The position numbers and the translations under genes were made by a program. A DNA stretch of 64,000 bases from Candidatus Omnitrophota bacterium (GTDB taxonomy: Bacteria > Omnitrophota > Gorgyraeia > Duberdicusellales > 4484-171): the NCBI GenBank assembly GCA_028703535.1, contig JAQVMQ010000001.1, forward strand, positions 8,818-72,817, written 5' to 3'. Shown piece after piece: positions 2,413 through 42,943 of the stretch (positions are counted from its first letter, which is position 1; each line of letters opens with the position of its first letter). The notes beneath the pieces were generated by a model. It was not told the origin of the DNA. It did not search any database and was given only the letters and a program-made list of their open reading frames with translations.

Positions 2413-3183
2413 ATGAGAAAATGGTATTTTCATAAGTTTATATCGCAAAAAACGGCCATCTTAACCATATTGCTTCTTTTGCCCATTGTGTCAGTTCATC
2501 CACAACCGCCCAAGGATAACGCAATAACAACACTAGATTTGGCTTTTCGTTCTTCAGTAAAAGTTATAGTCGATAATACTCTAAACGTTAAAGGGCCCTC
2601 CGGATTAGTAAGAACACCTGACAATAGATTAGTGAAACTTGATAAAATACGCACGCTTAACTATCGACGTACCGGTGTCGGCGTAATTGCAACAGCATCC
2701 GGGATAATAATAACAAACGCGCATATAGTCAAAGACGGCGGACGAATAAAAATCATCTTCGCTGATAACACCGAAACTACCGCTCAGCCTTTGTGGCTGA
2801 ATGTCCCGGACGATATTGCATTTCTAAAGATTGCTAAGCCTGATAAATTCGTATACATAACCTTTTCCAACTCGAATAATACAAAAACACAGCAAGACAT
2901 TTACACAATAGGCAGTTCTAAATTTATTAAAGGTCAGATGACACGCGGAAAAATAACAGGTATAGGCCGGCAAAAACAAACACCAAAAAATATCGCAATG
3001 ATACAAACTTCTATTTCGATATATAAAGGCGACAGCGGCTCGCCGTTATTCGATAAAAAAGGAGAATTTATAGGTATGCTAAGCGCCAAACAGACCAACA
3101 GCCCTTATTATAGCATAGCCATACCTGCAAATATAATCGCACAACATCTTTTAAATTATATGAAATCAGAAAAGAAGCTATAA
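2413..3183 (+). CDS. Secreted trypsin-like (S1) serine protease without PDZ domain
   Basis: N-terminal signal/TM segment. Catalytic triad context TNAHIV (His), DDIAFLKI (Asp), GDSGSPLFD (Ser). Confidence 0.8.
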   Translation: MRKWYFHKFISQKTAILTILLLLPIVSVHPQPPKDNAITTLDLAFRSSVKVIVDNTLNVKGPSGLVRTPDNRLVKLDKIRTLNYRRTGVGVIATASGIIITNAHIVKDGGRIKIIFADNTETTAQPLWLNVPDDIAFLKIAKPDKFVYITFSNSNNTKTQQDIYTIGSSKFIKGQMTRGKITGIGRQKQTPKNIAMIQTSISIYKGDSGSPLFDKKGEFIGMLSAKQTNSPYYSIAIPANIIAQHLLNYMKSEKKL

Positions 3184-3208
3184 GTCGTAAGCTCTAAGCT
3201 TTACGCCT
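3181..3208. repeat. Four tandem degenerate heptamers TAAGTCG-TAAGCTC-TAAGCTT-TACGCCT spanning the stop codons of two convergent genes
   Basis: Read directly. A bulged hairpin cgtaaGCtctaaGCTTtacg is also possible here. Member of the 7-nt-periodic intergenic family described in findings. Confidence 0.45.
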
Positions 3209-3643: not shown

Positions 3644-3671
3644 CTTATAGCTTAAAACTTATAGCTAAGAT
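3644..3671. repeat. 14-nt direct repeat x2 (cttatagcttaaaa / cttatagctaagat), i.e. heptamer-phased TAGCTTA-AAACTTA-TAGCTAA, between the EF-G-fusion stop and the PIN start
   Basis: Read directly; 11 of 14 positions identical between the two units. Confidence 0.5.
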
Positions 3672-6600
3672 TATTTCTCTTCACTTTTACGTTTCTTGAC
3701 TTCTTCAACTATTTTAGCTGTCGCCTCACTAGGCACCGGCTCATACCTTGAAAACTTCAAAGAAAAAGTTGCTCTACCGCTACTCAACGATCTAAAAGTC
3801 TGAGCATACCCGAACATCTCTGAAAGCGGCGCTTCAGCTTTTATCTCTTTCTGCGAGCCGTTGACATCCATACTAAGGATTTTCCCTCGTTTGGAACATA
3901 TATATCCAACAATATTGCTTACATATTCCTCAGGAGTAAGAACGCTGATCTCCATATACGGTTCAAGCAATATCGGCCCGGCATCCATAAACGTATTTTT
4001 AAAACATGTACGAGCCGCGACTTTAAACGCCAACTCAGACGAATCAACTTCATGATATGAACCGTCAAGCAATGTAGCCTTCACATCTACAACAGGATAT
4101 CCTGCCAATATACCGCCTTTCATTGCTTCAATAAAGCCTTTCTCCACTGCCGGTATATATGTCTGCGGGATAGCCCCGCCTTTTATTTTATTCTCAAAAA
4201 CAAAACCGGCACTCCGATCCAACGGTTCAATTTTCATTACAACATGTCCGTACTGCCCACGTCCGCCTGTCTGCTTAACATGTTTATATTCGCCTTCTTT
4301 AGATAAACTGAGCGTTTCTTTATAGGATACTTTCGGAGGGCTGACATCTGCATTAACTTTGAACTCCGTTTTTATCCTGTCTACAATGATCTCAAGATGC
4401 AGCTCACCCATCCCTGACAATATAATCTCGTTTGTCTCCTGATCTGTTTCAACAGTAAAGGTCGGATCTTCTTCAACTAATTTCATTATCGCTTTATTAA
4501 GTTTATCCTGATCCTGCCGGCTTCTCGGTGTAACACTTATAGATACGACAGGGACAGGAAACTCTATTGTCTCAAGAATAACCGGCCGATTAACCGAACA
4601 TAAAGTATCTCCCGTAGTCGTATTGTTTAATCCAACAGCTGCAGCAATATCTCCGGCAGCAATAACATTAATATTTTCTTTCTGATTTGCATGCATCTGT
4701 AAAATACGACCTATACGCTCTTTCTTGCCTTTCGTAGCGTTAAAGACATAGGACCCTGCCTGCAAACATCCCGAATAAACCCGGAAATAAATCAATTTGC
4801 CCACATGCGGATCGGCTTGGACCTTAAATGCTAAGGCAGAAAAGGGTTCATTCGTAGCCGCTGATATAACTATCTTTTTTTCATGATCAGCCGGATCATC
4901 CGCCTCAATAGGCGGCAAATCAATAGGTGACGGTAGAAAATCTTTAACAGCATCTAACAAAGTCTGCACGCCTTTATTTTTTAAAGCTGAGCCACACAAT
5001 ATCGGTACAAGTTTATTGGTAACAGTTCCTTTACGCAATGCTTTACGAACCTCATCTTTCGTAACAGACTCCGGCCCTTTAAGATATTTCTCCATAAGAC
5101 CTTCATCAACCTCTAGAGCCTTATCTATCAGCTTTTGATGATACTCTTTTACTTTTTCAGCTATATCAGACGGAATATCTATTTCTTCAATTTCCTTACC
5201 AAGATCATCTTTATACATATACGCTTTGCCTTCTATCAAATCAACAAAGCCTTTAAATTCGCTCTCAGCACCTATCGGTAACTGAATAACCGCGACATTA
5301 GCTTCAAGCCTATTCTCAATACTGTTGACAACCTTAAAAAAATCAGCACCCATCCTATCCATTTTATTAATAAAGGCAATCTTAGGTACATGATATTTAT
5401 CCGACTGACGCCAAACAGTTTCAGATTGTGCCTCAACGCCACCCACCGCACAAAAAACAACAACCGCGCCGTCCAAAACCCGCAAAGAACGTTCTACCTC
5501 AGCGGTAAAATCAACGTGCCCCGGTGTATCAATGATATTTATACGTGTATCTTTCCAAAAACAGGTAGTAGCCGCGGACGTAATAGTAATACCTCGTTCT
5601 TGTTCCTGCTTCATCCAATCCATCTGCGCAGCACCATCATGAACTTCTCCGATCTTATGCGACTTCCCTGTATAAAATAATATACGTTCGCTTATTGTTG
5701 TTTTTCCTGAATCTATATGCGCAATTATCCCGATATTGCGTAGTTTTTCAAAATCAACAGAAATATCAAGGTCTTCATCATCATCCGCGTGTGCATTTAT
5801 AACCGCATTATCCAAAGAAACGTCATCCCGAGATTCACTAACTTTACCATTATTTGTCTCCGGCACAATTTCTATAACTTTATCCGGGGAGATTGCAACA
5901 TCGTCCGATAAGACATCATCCGATAAGACCTCATCCTCAACAGACAGACCATGTTCAGAAACATTCTCATCGGATAACATCTCTGCTTCAGTATCGCTAA
6001 TCGATTGAGTATCTTCATCCGTATCCGTAATAATTTCTTTTTCAATTGGTCCAATAACTCTTGAGCTCTTAAGTTCATCAATAGTTTTTTTTAATTCATC
6101 AACCAAGCTATCTCTATGCTCAAGCTGTTTACCTCGATAATCTAAATCGCCTTTGAGTATCTCAAACTCCTCTTCAAGTGCGTGATATTCATCTCTTGAT
6201 ACCCAGTCGCTCTGTTCCATTTTACGTAACGCGTCATTAAGCTTACTTTTAACTGCTTGTTCACTTTTTAATACCGTATCAAGCCTATCTGTCAAAATAC
6301 GTATTTCTTTATCTTTTTCAAAAGACTTATTGGTAAGATCGGAAATGTCACTCTGTAAATCAGAATTTTCACTTTTTATTTTTATGTTTTTAGAAAATTC
6401 TCTCTCAAGTTCAATATCTTTGTCAATAATACGTTGTTTGAGCTCAGCAAGCTGGTTATACAATTTTTCAACCTGTTTCTTCTCTTTCTCTTCCCACTCT
6501 TTCTCCTTAGATATTGCAGTTTCAAGTTCAGAGTTTTTCTTAGACAATAAGGCTATCTTCTTTGTTTTTTCATCTATATCTTTATCCGCCAGCTCAAGTT

Positions 6601-6781
6601 TTGCGTTAAGTCCCGATAACTGTTCTTTCAACTTTTCGCCATGTTCTCTTAAATTTTGAACAGTTTGTTTAAGATTTTCTTTGTCAACTTTCTGTTTTCG
6701 TTTTTTAGGGTTGGGTTGATTAACCGCATAAAGACTCAAGCCCACACCGGCAAGCACCAATACTGCTAAAATAAATTCCAT
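3671..6781 (-). CDS. TM-anchor + coiled-coil + acidic linker fused to a complete EF-G (1036 aa)
   Basis: Single uninterrupted ORF; ATG at 6779-6781 with GGGGAGAG SD. aa 3-19 hydrophobic helix then KKRKQK; aa ~30-240 K/E/L heptad-rich; aa ~245-345 D/E/S-rich. From aa ~346: [53 protein letters not shown], i.e. a full five-domain EF-G. Confidence 0.9.
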
Positions 6782-6820
6782 TTGCTCTCCCCGAAAGAAT
6801 TTTGTAAGTTATAAGTATTT

Positions 6821-27885: not shown

Positions 27886-28119
27886 TCAGTCTTCAAGAAG
27901 GTATGTCCTGATTTGCTCCGGTTTGAGTCCCGCCTGTCCGGCGCTACGTCCGGCCGCGGCAGTACACAGGACGAAAGTTCTGGTACCAACTGCAGTAAAC
28001 CCATAGCAACGTGCATAAAATGTCGAAAACCAGGCACCGGGCGCAACCATGCATGCGGCTAATATAGCCTGGCTGGTATCAAGCTCTATTTCCGTAACTT
28101 TCGGTTTAGTATACTGCAT
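27886..28119 (-). CDS. Small Cys-containing peptide, paralog A (77 aa); candidate modified-peptide precursor
   Basis: MQYTKPKVTEIELDTSQAILAACMVAPGAWF... Paralogous to 28282-28515. Coding is supported by 8 synonymous versus 1 non-synonymous codon difference across the shared 27-codon N-terminal block. Confidence 0.75.
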   Translation of the reverse strand: MQYTKPKVTEIELDTSQAILAACMVAPGAWFSTFYARCYGFTAVGTRTFVLCTAAAGRSAGQAGLKPEQIRTYLLED

Positions 28120-28281: not shown

Positions 28282-28515
28282 CTAGGACGGCTTATCCTGA
28301 TTAGCCCCGATTTGACTTGCCCCTGCACCACCGGTACGCCCAACAGGAGAAGTCCTGCAACCCCAAACCGTTCCAGTCCCAACTGCCGTAAAAGCATAGC
28401 ATACTGAAGGTAACAAATAAAACCATGCACCCGGCGCGACCATGCATGCGGCTAATATAGCTTGACTGATATCAAGTTCTATTTCTGTAACTTTGGGTTT
28501 TCTGTATTGTTTCAT
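28282..28515 (-). CDS. Small Cys-containing peptide, paralog B (77 aa); candidate modified-peptide precursor
   Basis: MKQYRKPKVTEIELDISQAILAACMVAPGAWF... Same Cys spacing as paralog A (C-x14-C-x13-C), shared FTAVGT, divergent C-terminus. Confidence 0.75.
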   Translation of the reverse strand: MKQYRKPKVTEIELDISQAILAACMVAPGAWFYLLPSVCYAFTAVGTGTVWGCRTSPVGRTGGAGASQIGANQDKPS

Positions 28516-28693
28516 TCAACTCATATTACCATATTTTTTGTTTTATCAAATAAGATCTCATTCTAACTGTTTTTTGTGCTAAAAAATTATTTTGCGACAT
28601 TAGAATGCAGCCGGCCTCTTTTTTTTCAAAGAGCTATTAATGCGTAAACACATTGCCCTAATTATACCTTCTAACACTGACAGCTAAGGGCTA

Positions 28694-28739
28694 CCCGCCA
28701 CACCATTATTTTATTTAGGCGGGTCCGCCTCTGGCAGAA
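28694..28739. repeat. Intergenic ~50-nt double-hairpin element, copy 1 (CCCGCC-N18-GGCGGG + TCCGCCTCTGGCAGA)
   Basis: Aligns with copies at 37115-37162 and 41798-41846. Lies about 10 nt beyond the cmoB stop codon. Confidence 0.65.
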
Positions 28740-28749
28740 CAGCTAATAG

Positions 28750-29718
28750 CTATTGTGGTTTTTTCGCTAATACAACCGCCCGTCTAGGTGCCGGATAACC
28801 TTCAACTGTTATATCTTTATTTAACGGATCTAAAAAATCGTTTAAAGATTCAAAAGTCATCCAATCAGTAACGCGCTGCTCATCAGAGGTAGTTTTGCTT
28901 ATATCACTTACTTTTAGATCAACATATCTGCATTTTTTAAGCCAATTGAGCAAAGTCTCCACTGACGGTATAAACCATACATTAGACATCTTGGCATATC
29001 TGTCCCGCGGTGTTAAAGCATACCCTTGAGGGCCATCTACCACCAATGTCTCAAGAACAAGCTCACCTCCGGATTTAAGAAATGAATAGATCTGTATAAG
29101 GTGATCAAACGGCGAACGACGATGATACAAAAGTCCCATCGAAAAAACCGTATCAAAATATCCGCAATTATAAGGTATATCATCAACCCCAACAGGCAAA
29201 ACATTTACCTTGTCAGACTTCAAGTATCTGTTTAATAGCTGAAACTGCATAAAATACAAAAGCGTCGGATCTACACCCATAACAAACTCCGCGCCGGCAC
29301 CTAAAGCTCTTAAACAATGATAGCCGTTGGCTGCGCCTATATCCAATATTTTCCTGCCGGAAATATCAGATATTCCATCTTTAAACCTATCCCATTTAAT
29401 ATCAGAACGCCATTCTGTATCTATATTTATACCGAAAATACTGTACGGTCCCTTACGCCAAGGCATATATTGCCTAAGGATCTCATATAATTTTGCGTAT
29501 GAAACGTCGTCAATTTCATCACGCTGTCCTATTTTTATTACATTACCATCTAACTCGAAAAATGAAGGATTCACATCAGGCAGTTCATCATAAAGATTAC
29601 GCCATCTCGGCATATCTCCATGCTTGGAGCTCTTTATTATATCTAAACTTTTACGCTCTAAAATTGCAAGCTCCTGACTATATATATTTTTAAAAAACTT
29701 TCTAATATTTTTAGTCAT
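28750..29718 (-). CDS. cmoB: tRNA U34 carboxymethyltransferase CmoB
   Basis: Class I MTase core ILDIGAANGYH. Family-typical WRSDIKWDR and C-terminal region; adjacent to cmoA. ATG at 29716-29718 preferred over the track's TTG at 29724. Confidence 0.85.
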   Translation of the reverse strand: MTKNIRKFFKNIYSQELAILERKSLDIIKSSKHGDMPRWRNLYDELPDVNPSFFELDGNVIKIGQRDEIDDVSYAKLYEILRQYMPWRKGPYSIFGINIDTEWRSDIKWDRFKDGISDISGRKILDIGAANGYHCLRALGAGAEFVMGVDPTLLYFMQFQLLNRYLKSDKVNVLPVGVDDIPYNCGYFDTVFSMGLLYHRRSPFDHLIQIYSFLKSGGELVLETLVVDGPQGYALTPRDRYAKMSNVWFIPSVETLLNWLKKCRYVDLKVSDISKTTSDEQRVTDWMTFESLNDFLDPLNKDITVEGYPAPRRAVVLAKKPQ

Positions 29719-29769
29719 ATGCAATCAAAAAAACTACTCCTTTTATAGCTTACAATTTACGTCTTACAA

Positions 29770-36931: not shown

Positions 36932-37114
36932 TAGATAAGTATTATCCCTAACGGATTATGATTATATAAGACAAAAAACATATACGCAAGAAAAAGTTTT
37001 ATTCGGCCAACGGCTAATAATCTAGCTATTGCTATTAGAGTGTGTCCACACACGTATCATATACTGATAAACTCATCTAGTTTTACTTTACTGCAGACAT
37101 ATGTCTTATGTCTT

Positions 37115-37162
37115 CCCGCCGCCCTATTACTATATATTGAGGCGGGTCCGCCTTTGGCGAAA
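37115..37162. repeat. Intergenic ~50-nt double-hairpin element, copy 2
   Basis: CCCGCCgCCCTATTACTATATATTGAGGCGGGTCCGCCTTTGGCGAA; ends 4 nt from the stop codon at 37167. Confidence 0.65.
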
Positions 37163-37166
37163 TGCC

Positions 37167-38057
37167 TTAATATGGGTTACGTCTAATATATTCAAGTATT
37201 TTAATATCTGCCGGGGCAAGCTCCAATTTCGCCGCATCAACAAAATCAAAAAAACCTAAAGAATCACAATCTTTAGCATACGGCACCCCTGATATTATAA
37301 CGCATTTAATAAACTCGATATATATCTTTAACGTTTCATTTTCGTCCGTAAAATCAGACAGTTTTTCCTTAGCATGAACAACCAGGCCTGTTTCTTCGAA
37401 TATTTCACGTTCAATAGCCTCAAATGCAGTTTCACCAGATTCTATACATCCGCCGGGGAATTCCCATAGCCCTCCAAAAGTATCGTTTTCTTTACGCTTA
37501 CAAAGTAAAAATTTTCCGTCTTCGACTATATACGCGCCGGCTACATCAAGAGTCTTTTTTGCTTTCTTATTATCCAATATTTTTTCTAAACAATAATCAT
37601 CCATAACAAAACCTTCTCCAATATCTGTAAGTACAGACCCCGAGATTCTAAATCCCATATGCTTATATGTATCAATCGAGTCTTTATTGTTTTTATGTAC
37701 ACGCAGAAAGATCCTCTTGATATTTCTTGATAACGCTATTTTTTCCAATAATCTGAAGACACTTTTCGCATGTCCCCTGCCCCTATATTCTACGGCTACA
37801 TATAATTTACTTAGGAATAGTCCGTCATCTTCTATATCAAAAGAAAAATAACCTGCCGGAGACTTATCATCTATTATGTAATACTCTGATTTACCTGAAA
37901 ACACCCGGCAAGCGATAGCATCCGCTGTTTGAAATTTAGAAAGCATATACACTGTTTGCTCACGACCGATTATAGGAATGTAATGTTCAAGCCATATCGT
38001 ACGCGCAAGATTCTCTATAAGTTTGAAATCATCTTTATTTGACGCTTTATACAGCAT
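37167..38057 (-). CDS. GNAT N-acetyltransferase fused to a Nudix (MutT-like) hydrolase
   Basis: N-terminal half: VAVEYRGRGHAKSVF (acetyl-CoA site). C-terminal half: GGLWEFPGGCIESGETAFEAIEREIFEETGL (Nudix box). Confidence 0.8.
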   Translation of the reverse strand: MLYKASNKDDFKLIENLARTIWLEHYIPIIGREQTVYMLSKFQTADAIACRVFSGKSEYYIIDDKSPAGYFSFDIEDDGLFLSKLYVAVEYRGRGHAKSVFRLLEKIALSRNIKRIFLRVHKNNKDSIDTYKHMGFRISGSVLTDIGEGFVMDDYCLEKILDNKKAKKTLDVAGAYIVEDGKFLLCKRKENDTFGGLWEFPGGCIESGETAFEAIEREIFEETGLVVHAKEKLSDFTDENETLKIYIEFIKCVIISGVPYAKDCDSLGFFDFVDAAKLELAPADIKILEYIRRNPY

Positions 38058-40766: not shown

Positions 40767-41681
40767 CTATAAACTATCTATCATCTCTTTAGTCTTTTCG
40801 GCTGATTTTAATAAATCCGTTTTTTCCTGTTCAGTTATAGTCAGCTCGACTATTTTTTCTATACCGTTTGAACCTATAACGGCCGGTACACCAAAGCATA
40901 TCCCCGATATGCCGTATTCACCCGTAAGAAACGCCGAAACCGCAAGTGTACGCTTATCGTTGTTCTTTATTGATACCAATATATCTAAAACACCCGCACT
41001 CGGTGAATAATAGGCACTTCCCGTTTTAAGATATTGTACAACCTCACCACCGCGAAATTTAGTTTTATCAACACACTCGTTTATCTCTTGTTCAGAAAGC
41101 ACATCTGTAATCTTTTTATCAGCAATGGTAGTCTTTGACAATAACGGCACCATACTGTCACCATGACAGGCAAGAACATATGTCTTGATCTTTGAACGCG
41201 GCACGCCTGTCTTTTCAGACAAAATATTAATAAATCGCGCACCGTCGAGTGTGCCTGCCATTCCGATAACTCTTGATTTATCAAACCCTGTTGTCTTAAG
41301 CATCTCATAAACCATAACATCAAGCGGATTGGTTACAACTATCACAAGCGCATCAGGACAGTTTACCTTTATTTTCTCAGCCACCGACCGTATAATATCT
41401 GCATTTTTCTTTATAAGATCATCTCTTGTCATACCAGGTTTACGGGCAAGACCTGCCGTCATAACCACAATATCTGAGCCGGCTATATCATCAAAATTTG
41501 TTGTTCCCAAAATTTTACGTTCATGTTTGACAATGGCTGCGGCATCAGACATATCTATCGCCTTACCTTTAGCCAATCCGTCAACAATGTCTACCAACAA
41601 AACGTCAGCTATATCTGATTCAGCTATACGCATAGCCAGCGTCGCACCGACATTACCTGCCCCTATAACACTTATCTTCAT
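40767..41681 (-). CDS. mdh: Malate dehydrogenase (LDH-like type)
   Basis: MKISVIGAGNVGAT; substrate loop GLARKPGMTRDDL, where Arg at the discriminating position indicates malate. Confidence 0.9.
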   Translation of the reverse strand: MKISVIGAGNVGATLAMRIAESDIADVLLVDIVDGLAKGKAIDMSDAAAIVKHERKILGTTNFDDIAGSDIVVMTAGLARKPGMTRDDLIKKNADIIRSVAEKIKVNCPDALVIVVTNPLDVMVYEMLKTTGFDKSRVIGMAGTLDGARFINILSEKTGVPRSKIKTYVLACHGDSMVPLLSKTTIADKKITDVLSEQEINECVDKTKFRGGEVVQYLKTGSAYYSPSAGVLDILVSIKNNDKRTLAVSAFLTGEYGISGICFGVPAVIGSNGIEKIVELTITEQEKTDLLKSAEKTKEMIDSL

Positions 41682-41797
41682 AAAAAAAGGCTCCTATATA
41701 ATTTTTCTTTGTTTTCCCCAATTCGCTTCGCTTTCGGGGCCAGCTAATACTCTATTTAGTTTCACATTTAACTCTTAATTCTTACGACGCATGCCTT

Positions 41798-41846
41798 CCC
41801 GCCACCCTATTACTATATATTTAGGCGGGTCCGTCTTCGGCGGAAC
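41798..41846. repeat. Intergenic ~50-nt double-hairpin element, copy 3
   Basis: CCCGCCaCCCTATTACTATATATTTAGGCGGGTCCGTCTTCGGCGGAA; ends about 5 nt from the icd stop codon at 41852. Confidence 0.65.
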
Positions 41847-41851
41847 GTCTT

Positions 41852-42943
41852 CTATCCTTGTATTTCCTTTACTATAGCATCAGCCATTTCTTGAGTACCG
41901 ACAGCACTGGGATCGTTCCTGTCCTCTTTAAGGTCATACGTTACGTATTTGCCGTCCTGTATAATCTTTATAACAGCGTTCTCAAGAATGTCCGCCGCTT
42001 TAGTTTCACCTAAATGACGCAGCATCAATACCGCCGACAAGATCGTAGCAGTAGCGTTAACCTTATTTTGCCCTGCGTATTTCGGAGCACTGCCATGCGT
42101 TGGTTCGAAGACCGCAATATCGGCGCCTATATTGGCACCTGCAGCAAGGCCCAACCCGCCGACAAGACCTGCACAAAGATCAGATAATATATCGCCGTAT
42201 AAGTTCTCCATAACCAAAACATCATAATTTTGCGGTACTTTAACCAACTGCATACACATATTATCAACTATAGTATCCCAATACTCAACACGCCCCTCAT
42301 ACTCTTTTGCTATATCATAGAATATCTTCAAGAACAATCCATCAGTAAATTTCATTATATTAGCTTTGTGCACACAATTCACACTTTTACGGCCGTTTTT
42401 AACTGCATATTCAAATGCCGCACGAACGATACGCTGAGTACCGAAAACAGAAATAGGTTTTATTGATACCGCGCTTTCTGCCGATATTTTTTTGTCAGAC
42501 ATCGCGTTTATCTCCGCAATAATCTTCTCTGTTTTTCTATCACCCAGCTCAAATTCTATACCCGCGTATAGATCTTCCGTGTTTTCTCTAAAAATAACCA
42601 AATCAATATTCTTATATTTGGCAAGTTTATCGGGTAAATACGTTTTTATAGGCCTAACACAGGCAAAAAGATCGAACATCTGTCTTATAGTAACGTTAAT
42701 CGAACGGAAACCTTTACCTACAGGTGTAGTTATCGGCCCTTTAATGGCTATTTTATTTTTACGGATCGACTCTATAGTCACCTCTGGCAAAAGTGAATTA
42801 TATTCGCCAAGCGCATTTTCACCCGCAGGCATACTCTCCCACTTGATATCGAGGTTTAATGCATCGACACATTTAACCATAGCTTGAGTAACCTCCGGGC
42901 CTATACCATCACCCGGCAATAATGTTACAGTATATTTACTCAT
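41852..42943 (-). CDS. icd: Isocitrate dehydrogenase (NAD-IDH / beta-decarboxylating dehydrogenase family, 363 aa)
   Basis: TLLPGDGIGPEV, SINVTIRQMFDLFACVRP, NLYGDILSDL, G(L)AAGANIG. Assigning isocitrate rather than isopropylmalate or homoisocitrate as substrate is an inference from the neighbouring TCA genes. Confidence 0.75.
   Translation of the reverse strand: MSKYTVTLLPGDGIGPEVTQAMVKCVDALNLDIKWESMPAGENALGEYNSLLPEVTIESIRKNKIAIKGPITTPVGKGFRSINVTIRQMFDLFACVRPIKTYLPDKLAKYKNIDLVIFRENTEDLYAGIEFELGDRKTEKIIAEINAMSDKKISAESAVSIKPISVFGTQRIVRAAFEYAVKNGRKSVNCVHKANIMKFTDGLFLKIFYDIAKEYEGRVEYWDTIVDNMCMQLVKVPQNYDVLVMENLYGDILSDLCAGLVGGLGLAAGANIGADIAVFEPTHGSAPKYAGQNKVNATATILSAVLMLRHLGETKAADILENAVIKIIQDGKYVTYDLKEDRNDPSAVGTQEMADAIVKEIQG

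Follow-up and report, generated by a model that had tools for sequence, protein, structure and literature searches.

Two tandem GC-rich hairpins, together called E below, occur three times in the stretch of DNA analysed here, 64 000 nt of a Candidatus Omnitrophota genome (assembly GCA_028703535.1, contig JAQVMQ010000001.1, positions 8,818 to 72,817; the whole stretch is termed the window), each time a few nucleotides past the stop codon of a gene. There is good reason to regard E as a very small (30–53 nt), non-autonomous, selfish piece of inserted DNA. Both hairpins are made from one unit, YCCGCC-loop-GGCGGR, in the arrangement [CCCGCC-loop-GGCGGG][TCCGCC-NNN-GGCGGA]. Searched for in the window as CCCGCC-N12-30-GGCGGG, the first part has exactly three matches, starting at 28694, 37115 and 41798 and all on the + strand, with none in any of 100 dinucleotide shuffles of the window, and TCCGYC-NNN-GRCRRA directly adjoins the 3' side of each match. 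A covariance model for the module, trained on 49 family members, recovers the same three and scores them at 56, 54 and 48 bits over model positions 1–45 of 45; run with its filters off, it finds no degenerate further copy in the window. An earlier note on this DNA, made from its letters only, had picked out the three copies as one conserved element, and its three starts were right, the 3' ends proving to lie 1–2 nt short of where it had put them. Among the identities that it offered, that of a palindrome like the REPs (repetitive extragenic palindromes) has worn well, the element very probably being a miniature mobile or selfish one; that of a remnant of a MITE (miniature inverted-repeat transposable element) has not, as the window copies, measured against the family model, are full length, slightly decayed, and not remnants.

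Additional copies, which the note had proposed to look for in relatives, exist in number. A scan of one genome per bacterial or archaeal species with the pattern CCCGCC-N14-26-GGCGGGTCCGYC-NNN-GRCRRA, for which about one match is expected by chance at even base composition, yielded 95 loci, and it is the 8-kb pieces around these matches (referred to by L numbers) that provide the family data. Where gene order is shared, E can be present at one of two corresponding sites and absent from the other. At L007 E and GTAATC-type repeats lie in a spacer of ~230 nt; the syntenic spacer of L084 is ~45 nt long and empty. In a conserved operon the spacer between its genes C and D is 215 nt with E at L057 and is empty at both L010 (45 nt) and L040 (17 nt), while for the A–B spacer of the same operon the situation is reversed, with E present at L010 and absent from L057.

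tRNA-like sequences are split by E with precision. In T loops the split is GGTTC-E-AAATCC (L005, L034 twice, L041, L062 and L095), in anticodon loops it is CTTG-E-AAAA (L026 twice and L050, the latter with a second variant in a D loop), and in D arms E is in the opposite orientation (E'), giving AGCT-E'-CAGCTGG (L009, L030, L040, L068 and L078); a further split type is TAGTT-E'-CAATGG. Uninterrupted copies stand alongside the split ones in L009 and L030, and these adjacent copies fix the ends of E at CCCGCC...GGCGGA, with nothing duplicated. Deletion of E in silico restores ARAGORN calls for a tRNA-Met (L005) and two tRNAs-Pro (L034). Since acceptor and T stems are mismatched in the restored tRNAs, and most units are beside an intact tRNA of the same identity, the split units, which are fragments or degenerate copies of tRNAs, are taken to be pseudogenes. 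They are often 0–120 nt upstream of that intact tRNA and sometimes form tandem series (at L009 from 2890 to 3186; split units also at L005, L026, L030, L034, L040, L050, L068 and L078), in which each unit is degenerate on the 3' side of its E insert (L009, L005, L026, L034 and L050).

Protein-coding genes have been entered too. In-frame E inserts of 42 nt are found in aspS (L023), a gene for a MiaB-like methylthiotransferase (L036), pilC/T2SS-F (L048) and gltX (L053), and in all four the Pfam domain match spans the insert. Three further in-frame copies, of 30 or 45 nt, are in RpiB-like and ATP-grasp-like open reading frames (ORFs) at L085 and in a CoA-binding-like ORF at L077, these hosts being named from their sequence only. 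Within genes E occurs in both orientations, and all of the in-gene lengths are multiples of three and translatable. MiaB orthologues of Omnitrophota, which range from 347 to 523 aa, owe their extra length to repeat-coded insertions at three hot spots, after TLKK, IEKIxKE and QNVNDY (alignment A4). At the last of these the shortest proteins have no insert, P0147 has a heptamer-coded array, FKFQIPNSKFQI, alone, in L036 E has split this array, giving SPPKADPPNRFKVAG, and the place is taken in P0137 by a degenerate E and in P0121 by a different palindrome; tandem arrays, then, also exist without E. The insert in AspRS, when set against solved structures, falls in an unaligned linker and hence comes without a clean empty site. 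E is also nested in the loops of other small palindromes (L048, L059, L033, L086 and L126). The other tiny palindromic modules that recur and are nested with it include GTCATTCTGAG...AAGAATC, CATTGCGAG...GCAATC, CCTGCC...GGCAGG, which encodes ACLPAGR, and CCCGCTTACGCGGGAATGAC, which encodes RLRGNDG, the loci including that of protein P0121.

Alignment of the 75 unique flanks reveals what E is inserted into. Upstream, positions -3 and -2 are pyrimidines in 60 and 73 of the 75 and position -1 is G in 44; downstream, positions +1, +2 and +3 are A in 57, 63 and 44, so that the consensus insertion site is YYG^AAA. All of the tRNA cases fit this site, which accounts for the orientation of E: sense where it splits T and anticodon loops, antisense where it splits the D arm. 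The tetranucleotide most enriched just before E is GTTC, with 8 occurrences against 0.24 expected (~33-fold), and CTTG is joint fourth with 4 against 0.29 (~14-fold); 12 of the 75 flanks are thus exactly GTTC or CTTG, and many other YYS endings occur too.

Direct repeats of at least 5 nt flank 23 of the 75 copies, where 4.9 would be expected and shuffled pairings reach 10 at most; flanking repeats of the inverted kind show no enrichment in this set. The direct repeats are those of tandem 7–8-mers, with E at a unit boundary, as in TAAATCG-E-TAAATCG, AACCCTTG-E-AACCCTTG and AAAGCTC-E-AAAGCTC, and the window copies conform with ATGYCTT-E-AYGYCTT and NNNGCTA-E-ACAGCTA. Within one genome each loop subfamily of E is paired with its own repeat unit. 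A guide-like pairing of the variable loop with the flanking heptamers was considered by eye for three subfamilies and was unconvincing.

The architecture of E is one of a rigid part and a free part. Its second hairpin, closed by a loop of 3 nt, hardly varies; its first loop varies from 3 to ~40 nt, is often AT-rich and may house another unit or another hairpin (L038, L067, L015 and L034), with the outcome that there are 30-nt forms and common 41–53-nt forms. The 21-nt core, GGCGGGTCCGCCYNNGGCGGA, is strictly conserved in sequence, being identical across very distant phyla, and has the dyad symmetries CCGCC-N3-GGCGG and GGCGG-GT-CCGCC. Frequently the first loop opens with ACC, and the resulting CCCGCCACC resembles a tRNA 3' end. 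In a 120-hit alignment the stems pair in 98.5% of cells, and their variation, almost all of it a choice between C:G and U:A for the closing pair, amounts to the very difference between the two units. The stems are conserved as sequence, without covariation. The differences in hairpin 2 of the window copies, described in the earlier note as remaining pairable, do not compensate one another: each copy is a single transition (GGCAGA, GGCGAA or TCCGTC) away from TCCGCC/GGCGGA, with the first two keeping their pairing only in minus-strand RNA and the third only in plus-strand RNA. These are decay-type transitions, not compensation. On both strands alike the window copies are predicted to adopt the twin hairpin, with folding energies of -16 to -21 kcal/mol and with modest z-scores on the mRNA strand of -0.8, -0.95 and -2.8. 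Rfam has no match at gathering threshold in the window, and around the third copy a permissive E-value gives only a spurious match with E = 1.1.

The position of E with respect to genes is not random. Among the gene 3' ends that face E, 15 of 50 are 25 nt or less away, as against 2 of 44 5' ends (Fisher p = 0.0013). Towards co-directional flanking genes E shows no preferred orientation (~11 sense, ~13 antisense), and a hand tally from the orientation table gives 5 sense and 10 antisense for the stop-proximal copies. In three related Omnitrophota the spacer after icd has an ordinary hairpin-plus-T-tract terminator (L180 8083–8148, L181 8086–8186 and L183 8086–8163) and no E, the downstream gene there being lplA-like and not mdh; the genes downstream of icd in these three relatives differ from those of the window, where no hairpin-plus-T-tract terminator follows icd. 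In the window from 26 to 45 kb terminator-like matches are no commoner than in shuffles. With E, operon transcripts of the window may carry REP-like protective hairpins in place of ordinary terminators. REP elements stabilise upstream mRNA, and where one lies within ~15 nt of a stop codon, termination of translation can be disturbed. It is plausible that E likewise has an effect on mRNA 3' ends as a secondary property. The clustering near stop codons may be due to insertions being tolerated only there, or to the retention of copies whose stable 3' hairpin benefits the message upstream.

How far, then, is E explained as primarily an RNA element, whether a terminator dispensing with a U tract, a 3'-end stabiliser or a processing site, selected in the upstream transcript? 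The 5–11 nt separating the window copies from their stops, the clustering just described, the stability of the twin hairpin on the mRNA strand, the true terminators that the relatives have where E sits after icd and the frequency of terminator-like matches between 26 and 45 kb, no higher than in shuffles, would all suit it, and REPs, for their part, are described as sited mainly past coding regions, perhaps with a function as RNA elements (PMC3733652). We nevertheless consider it unlikely. E takes both orientations to the upstream gene even when stop-proximal, its stems are conserved as sequence across phyla with no covariation, the window substitutions favour different strands, the mRNA-strand z-scores are modest, Rfam has nothing to match it, and copies are within coding and tRNA-like sequences. 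Of the 3'-end role that the earlier note put forward, the stop-proximal position survives for the family as a whole, and a strand-specific RNA structure finds no support in covariation; as to a dedicated terminator or processing signal, the in-frame gene copies and those in tRNA-like sequences fit inserted DNA instead.

Strict conservation of the core with its dyad symmetries is what would be expected of a double-stranded DNA site for a host protein (a nucleoid protein, gyrase or integration host factor as for the bacterial interspersed mosaic elements, BIMEs, a recombinase, or a DNA-uptake signal in inverted pairs), kept for that function. Such a site would function irrespective of orientation, and E does tend to be intergenic and at gene ends. 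Yet copy number is very uneven, from 1 in Ca. Velamenicoccus through 3 in this 64-kb window to at least 19 in CBIHOL01, orthologous sites differ in having or lacking it, essential genes and tRNA-like sequences contain it, the lineage-specific loop subfamilies have the look of amplification, and it is hard to name a single host factor common to so distant phyla; we give this explanation little credence. Still less can be said for an intervening sequence acting at the RNA level, a mini-intron excised from tRNAs and mRNAs, and we regard this as very improbable indeed. E is precisely in tRNA loops and its removal in silico restores tRNA calls (L005 and L034), but what is restored is mismatched in acceptor and T stems, mostly beside an intact tRNA, and pseudogene-like; on account of these degenerate products the tRNA intron idea was rejected. 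Both orientations occur in tRNA-like sequences and in genes, there is no similarity to ribozymes or to Rfam families, and the in-gene lengths in multiples of three fit translation through the insert.

How might E be inserted? It lands precisely, without target-site duplication, at YYG^AAA sites, whether in the loops of tRNA genes, the loops of other palindromes, the boundaries of 7–8-mer arrays or permissive loops of protein-coding genes, and copies survive mainly where the harm is small, most often in the first ~25 nt after a stop codon. Mobilisation may be in trans, by an enzyme that recognises both conserved hairpins, for which the best match would be a single-strand-DNA nuclease of the HUH type (of the IS91 or the IS200/RAYT kind, RAYT being the REP-associated tyrosine transposase); this HUH step is offered tentatively. 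The precedent is that IS200/IS605 and RAYT enzymes act on hairpin ends (PMC3733652). Once behind a stop codon, a copy in either orientation would give the transcript its twin hairpin of -16 to -21 kcal/mol, which probably protects the coding sequence before it against 3' exonucleases or serves as punctuation in the operon transcript, in the manner of REPs. Such shielding would be a by-product or a later co-option and not the reason for the existence of the sequence. Larger still, and in our opinion doubtful though worth stating, is the proposal that E is the visible part of an unrecognised cross-phylum mobilisation system for a 30–50-nt module that is cut and pasted, or copied, without duplication at YYG^AAA, the conserved loops of tRNA genes being among its targets. 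Were it true, E would be among the smallest mobile DNA known, it would have spread horizontally among ultra-small groundwater bacteria (Omnitrophota and the candidate phyla radiation, CPR) and their neighbours, local duplications of tRNA gene segments and the reshaping of protein loops would be its work, and what moves it would be a new nuclease of the HUH type that acts in trans or else some host activity conserved universally.

Several things weigh against E being mobile inserted DNA. Neither the window nor, recurrently, the 520 kb around the copies has a transposase or other enzyme linked to E. All-against-all clustering of the ORFs around copies gave no recurrent neighbour, ORFs between paired E copies are ordinary genes, and tblastn with RAYT and IS608 TnpA sequences and the L055 Y1 protein as queries found only L055. 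That locus, in CBIHOL01, has a gene for a Y1 (IS200-like, RAYT-like) transposase at 5980–6816 (Pfam PF01797, E = 5.5e-26), preceded by four GACCCC-TTCG-GGGGTC palindromes, not by E; gene and palindromes are a separate REP-type system in the same genome. The terminus of E, GGCGGA, is unlike the GTTC/CTCG-like end of the IS91 type, and the target is under constraint both before and after the insertion point, not an obvious expectation of single-strand HUH insertion. Direct repeats, which flank about 30% of copies, could be read as target duplications rather than as pre-existing arrays. The pattern that gathered the family fixes most stem bases, making the invariance of the stems partly one of ascertainment, the ORF calls behind the position and orientation statistics are crude, and several of the taxonomic labels of metagenome-assembled genomes (MAGs) are doubtful. 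Finally, movement is not seen within the window species, all of whose assemblies are identical, and since they are identical and the nearest relatives have only 69% Icd identity, an empty site for the three window copies could not be demonstrated.

How widely does E occur? Around 20 of the 95 loci, from GC-rich actinobacteria and proteobacteria, are probably chance matches, and the remainder (G+C of 0.6 or less) come from ~40 species-level genomes. Many are Omnitrophota, including the complete chromosome of Ca. Velamenicoccus archaeovorus with its one copy. Eight CPR lineages are represented: Shapirobacteria (4 copies), Doudna-, Kerfeld-, Buchanan-, Komeili-, Sacchari- and Paceibacteria, and a Patescibacteria group MAG. 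The MAG CBIHOL01, which we take to be Bacteroidota-like from one ORF ending in what was recognised, by eye and not by a tool, as a sorting tail of the type IX secretion system (T9SS), accounts for 18 loci and at least 19 copies. Lentisphaerales, Edwardsbacteria, Ignavibacteria, Nitrospiraceae and Chloroflexi are further hosts. Two controls speak for the specificity of the family matches: among the matches listed, 730 kb of other Omnitrophota-type icd loci hold one related element, and 2.9 million viral contigs gave one uninformative GC-rich match. The related element (L126 1306–1347, on a distant Omnitrophota-type contig) is a twin hairpin of two TCCGCC-N9-GGCGGA units that directly follows the icd homologue, the same gene end as that of the third window copy, and is nested in another palindrome. 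Lineages own distinct subfamilies, told apart by the first loop, which favours amplification within genomes and disfavours contamination. The labels of two MAGs, CAYNSZ01 as ‘uncultured Planctomycetia’ (loci L018, L035, L036, L056 and L058) and CAZHVX01 as ‘uncultured Pseudomonadota’ (L033, L040 and L086), are probably wrong, synteny and best MiaB hits pointing to Omnitrophota for both. Many E copies are ~300 nt or less from contig ends (L009, L017, L025, L026, L030, L031, L034, L040, L049 and L061), which suggests that metagenome assemblies are interrupted by E repeats and the tRNA-like units that surround them. The literature was searched for the core sequence as well as for repeat elements of Omnitrophota or CPR bacteria, no description of E came to light, and the family is apparently undescribed.

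To return to the window, its copies are past the stops of the three genes that the earlier note had named, cmoB, a GNAT-Nudix gene and icd, at distances of 11, 5 and 7 nt, and lie 178, 183 and 116 nt from the next minus-strand ORF, all within the ranges given there, and the absence of a T or U tract after them, as it had said, applies on both strands. All genes of the window from 26 to 45 kb are on the minus strand. Copy 1 (28694..28738, +, 45 nt, 56.4 bits) has the hairpins CCCGCC-18 nt-GGCGGG and TCCGCC-TCT-GGCAGA, the latter one G>A from the family consensus, and follows the TAG stop of cmoB (Methyltransf_9; 28750–29724, minus). It has the direct heptamers ACAGCTA AGGGCTA on its left (28680..28693, +) and ACAGCTA ATAGCTA on its right (28739..28752, +), so that the NNNGCTA unit recurs across the element, the final three bases being the minus-strand cmoB stop codon. 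Copy 2 (37115..37161, +, 47 nt, 48.1 bits) has a first loop of 20 nt and as its second hairpin TCCGCC-TTT-GGCGAA, also one G>A from consensus, and follows the TAA stop of the GNAT-Nudix gene (37167–38057, minus); on its left are the heptamers ATGTCTT ATGTCTT (37101..37114, +) and on its right ATGCCTT (37162..37168, +), overlapping the stop codon. Copy 3, the one singled out in the earlier note (41798..41844, +, 47 nt, 54.4 bits), has nearly the same first loop as copy 2 and a second hairpin, TCCGTC-TTC-GGCGGA, with one C>T. It lies between the TAG stop of icd (41852–42943, minus), which encodes an NAD-type isocitrate dehydrogenase, and mdh (40767–41681), 116 nt away, with ATGCCTT on its left (41791..41797, +) and ACGTCTT on its right (41845..41851, +), the latter directly adjoining the icd stop codon. 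Copies 2 and 3 share a 61-nt unit with 87% identity, found as repeat family D6, which reaches 7 nt past the hairpins on each side. A CCGCC-N6-GGCGG sequence at 4900–4915, within an ORF of 1036 aa, was taken to be a chance match and not a further copy.

Four independent assemblies of the same species (NCBI MAG GCA_028715525.1, Logan, ENA and JGI) have the window copies in identical form, so that an assembly artefact is not involved. Icd homologues place the organism in Candidatus Omnitrophota, with nearest relatives at 69% Icd identity; the Icd protein search gave no relative between 69% and 100%, and in an Icd metagenome scan all loci, among the matches listed, were at 66% identity or less.

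Two other features of the window were observed along the way. Between copy 1 with cmoB and a GT4 glycosyltransferase gene are two paralogous 77-aa ORFs (27886–28119 and 28282–28515, minus), by eye unusually GC-rich for this genome, with a 91-nt N-terminal stretch 86% identical (MxxYxKPKVTEIELDxSQAILAACMVAPGAWF...) and no match in Pfam or NCBIfam; they could be small secreted or modified peptides, or be non-coding. Direct repeats of 265–300 nt with 69–71% identity are at 231–530/5206–5505 and 4014–4278/63415–63679. At least one member of each pair is within the 1036-aa ORF (3671–6781), and they are therefore probably paralogous coding segments.

For the window, E explains three odd gene-end structures. 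More generally, it lengthens and varies essential proteins, as its coded inserts in MiaB orthologues, AspRS and GluRS attest, and creates arrays of tRNA pseudogenes; repeats of its type, it is suggested, also complicate the assembly and annotation of MAGs. We know of no account of how Rickettsia palindromic elements (RPEs), CGTC-type REPs or the small dispersed repeats (SDRs) of cyanobacteria move. With a fixed 21-nt core, ~40 species-level genomes from distant and for the most part uncultivated phyla, exact ends and a definable target, the question of mobility becomes testable.

How does E compare with what is known? Like REPs and BIMEs it consists of short GC-rich imperfect palindromes in many copies, often paired, mostly downstream of genes and occasionally inside them, and REPs too are believed to be mobile though non-autonomous DNA, able to work as RNA hairpins as well (PMC3733652). 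Each E hairpin, at 15–40 nt, is about the size of the 20–40-nt palindromes that define them. REPs have an unpaired GTAG (or CGTC) tag at one end (PMC3733652), but the composition of termini and flanks in 75 unique copies of E shows neither tag, its ends being CCCGCC and GGCGGA and its flanks YYG and AAA. E differs further in that it is a fixed tandem pair, with near-identical hairpins in direct rather than inverted arrangement, in that no RAYT gene is flanked by it in the window or the 520 kb around copies, and in that the same core is common to very distant phyla. MITEs are 70–300 bp long, have terminal inverted repeats of ~15–30 bp and duplicate their target sites; E is 30–53 nt long, its ends are inverted for only 5–6 nt (CCCGCC/TCCGCC) and it has made no duplication where native tRNA sequence shows the empty site. 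RPEs are, to our knowledge, confined to one genus. Their mobilising enzyme is unknown and in-frame insertions of them in genes are known (PMC10969869, PMC3733652). With RPEs E shares, through its family members outside the window, the occurrence of palindromic repeats both between genes and in frame within genes that keep their domain structure, but RPEs are ~100–150 bp elements of Rickettsia with a CGTC end, while E is 30–53 nt, has another sequence and is in Omnitrophota, CPR bacteria, a Bacteroidota-like MAG and others.

The SDRs were reported by Elhai and colleagues in 2008 to occur nested in repeats of other kinds and in register with tandem heptamers. Going by their description, SDR4-6 resemble E as hairpin modules of <100 nt that are inserted precisely, in phase in heptamers and nested in repeats; the twin hairpin and the cross-phylum core set E apart. 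SDR5 sits between the third and fourth base of the highly iterated palindrome HIP1 (PMC4390886), and SDRs have been reported only from Nostocaceae (PMC5861425). Members of the IS91 family, rolling-circle elements with a Y2 HUH transposase, insert without target duplication beside CTTG or GTTC, less often GTCC or CTCG, have imperfect or subterminal palindromes at both ends and sometimes co-mobilise flanking DNA (PMC13181058). E is reminiscent of them in its lack of target duplication and in the 8 GTTC and 4 CTTG among its 75 preceding tetranucleotides. It is, however, ~40 times smaller and encodes nothing, its far end is GGCGGA and not CTCG or GTTC, no more than 12 of its 75 flanks match GTTC or CTTG exactly, many others having different YYS endings, and the base after its insertion point is A-rich and constrained. 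An intrinsic terminator, too, has a GC-rich hairpin that lies a few bases past a stop codon, but E has no U tract on either strand, has two hairpins of fixed sequence, occurs in both orientations and is found inside genes. In sum, E shares behaviour with REPs, RPEs and cyanobacterial SDRs, but it lacks the GTAG or CGTC tag of REPs, the long terminal repeats and target duplication of a MITE, and the length of ~150 bp and restriction to Rickettsia of RPEs.

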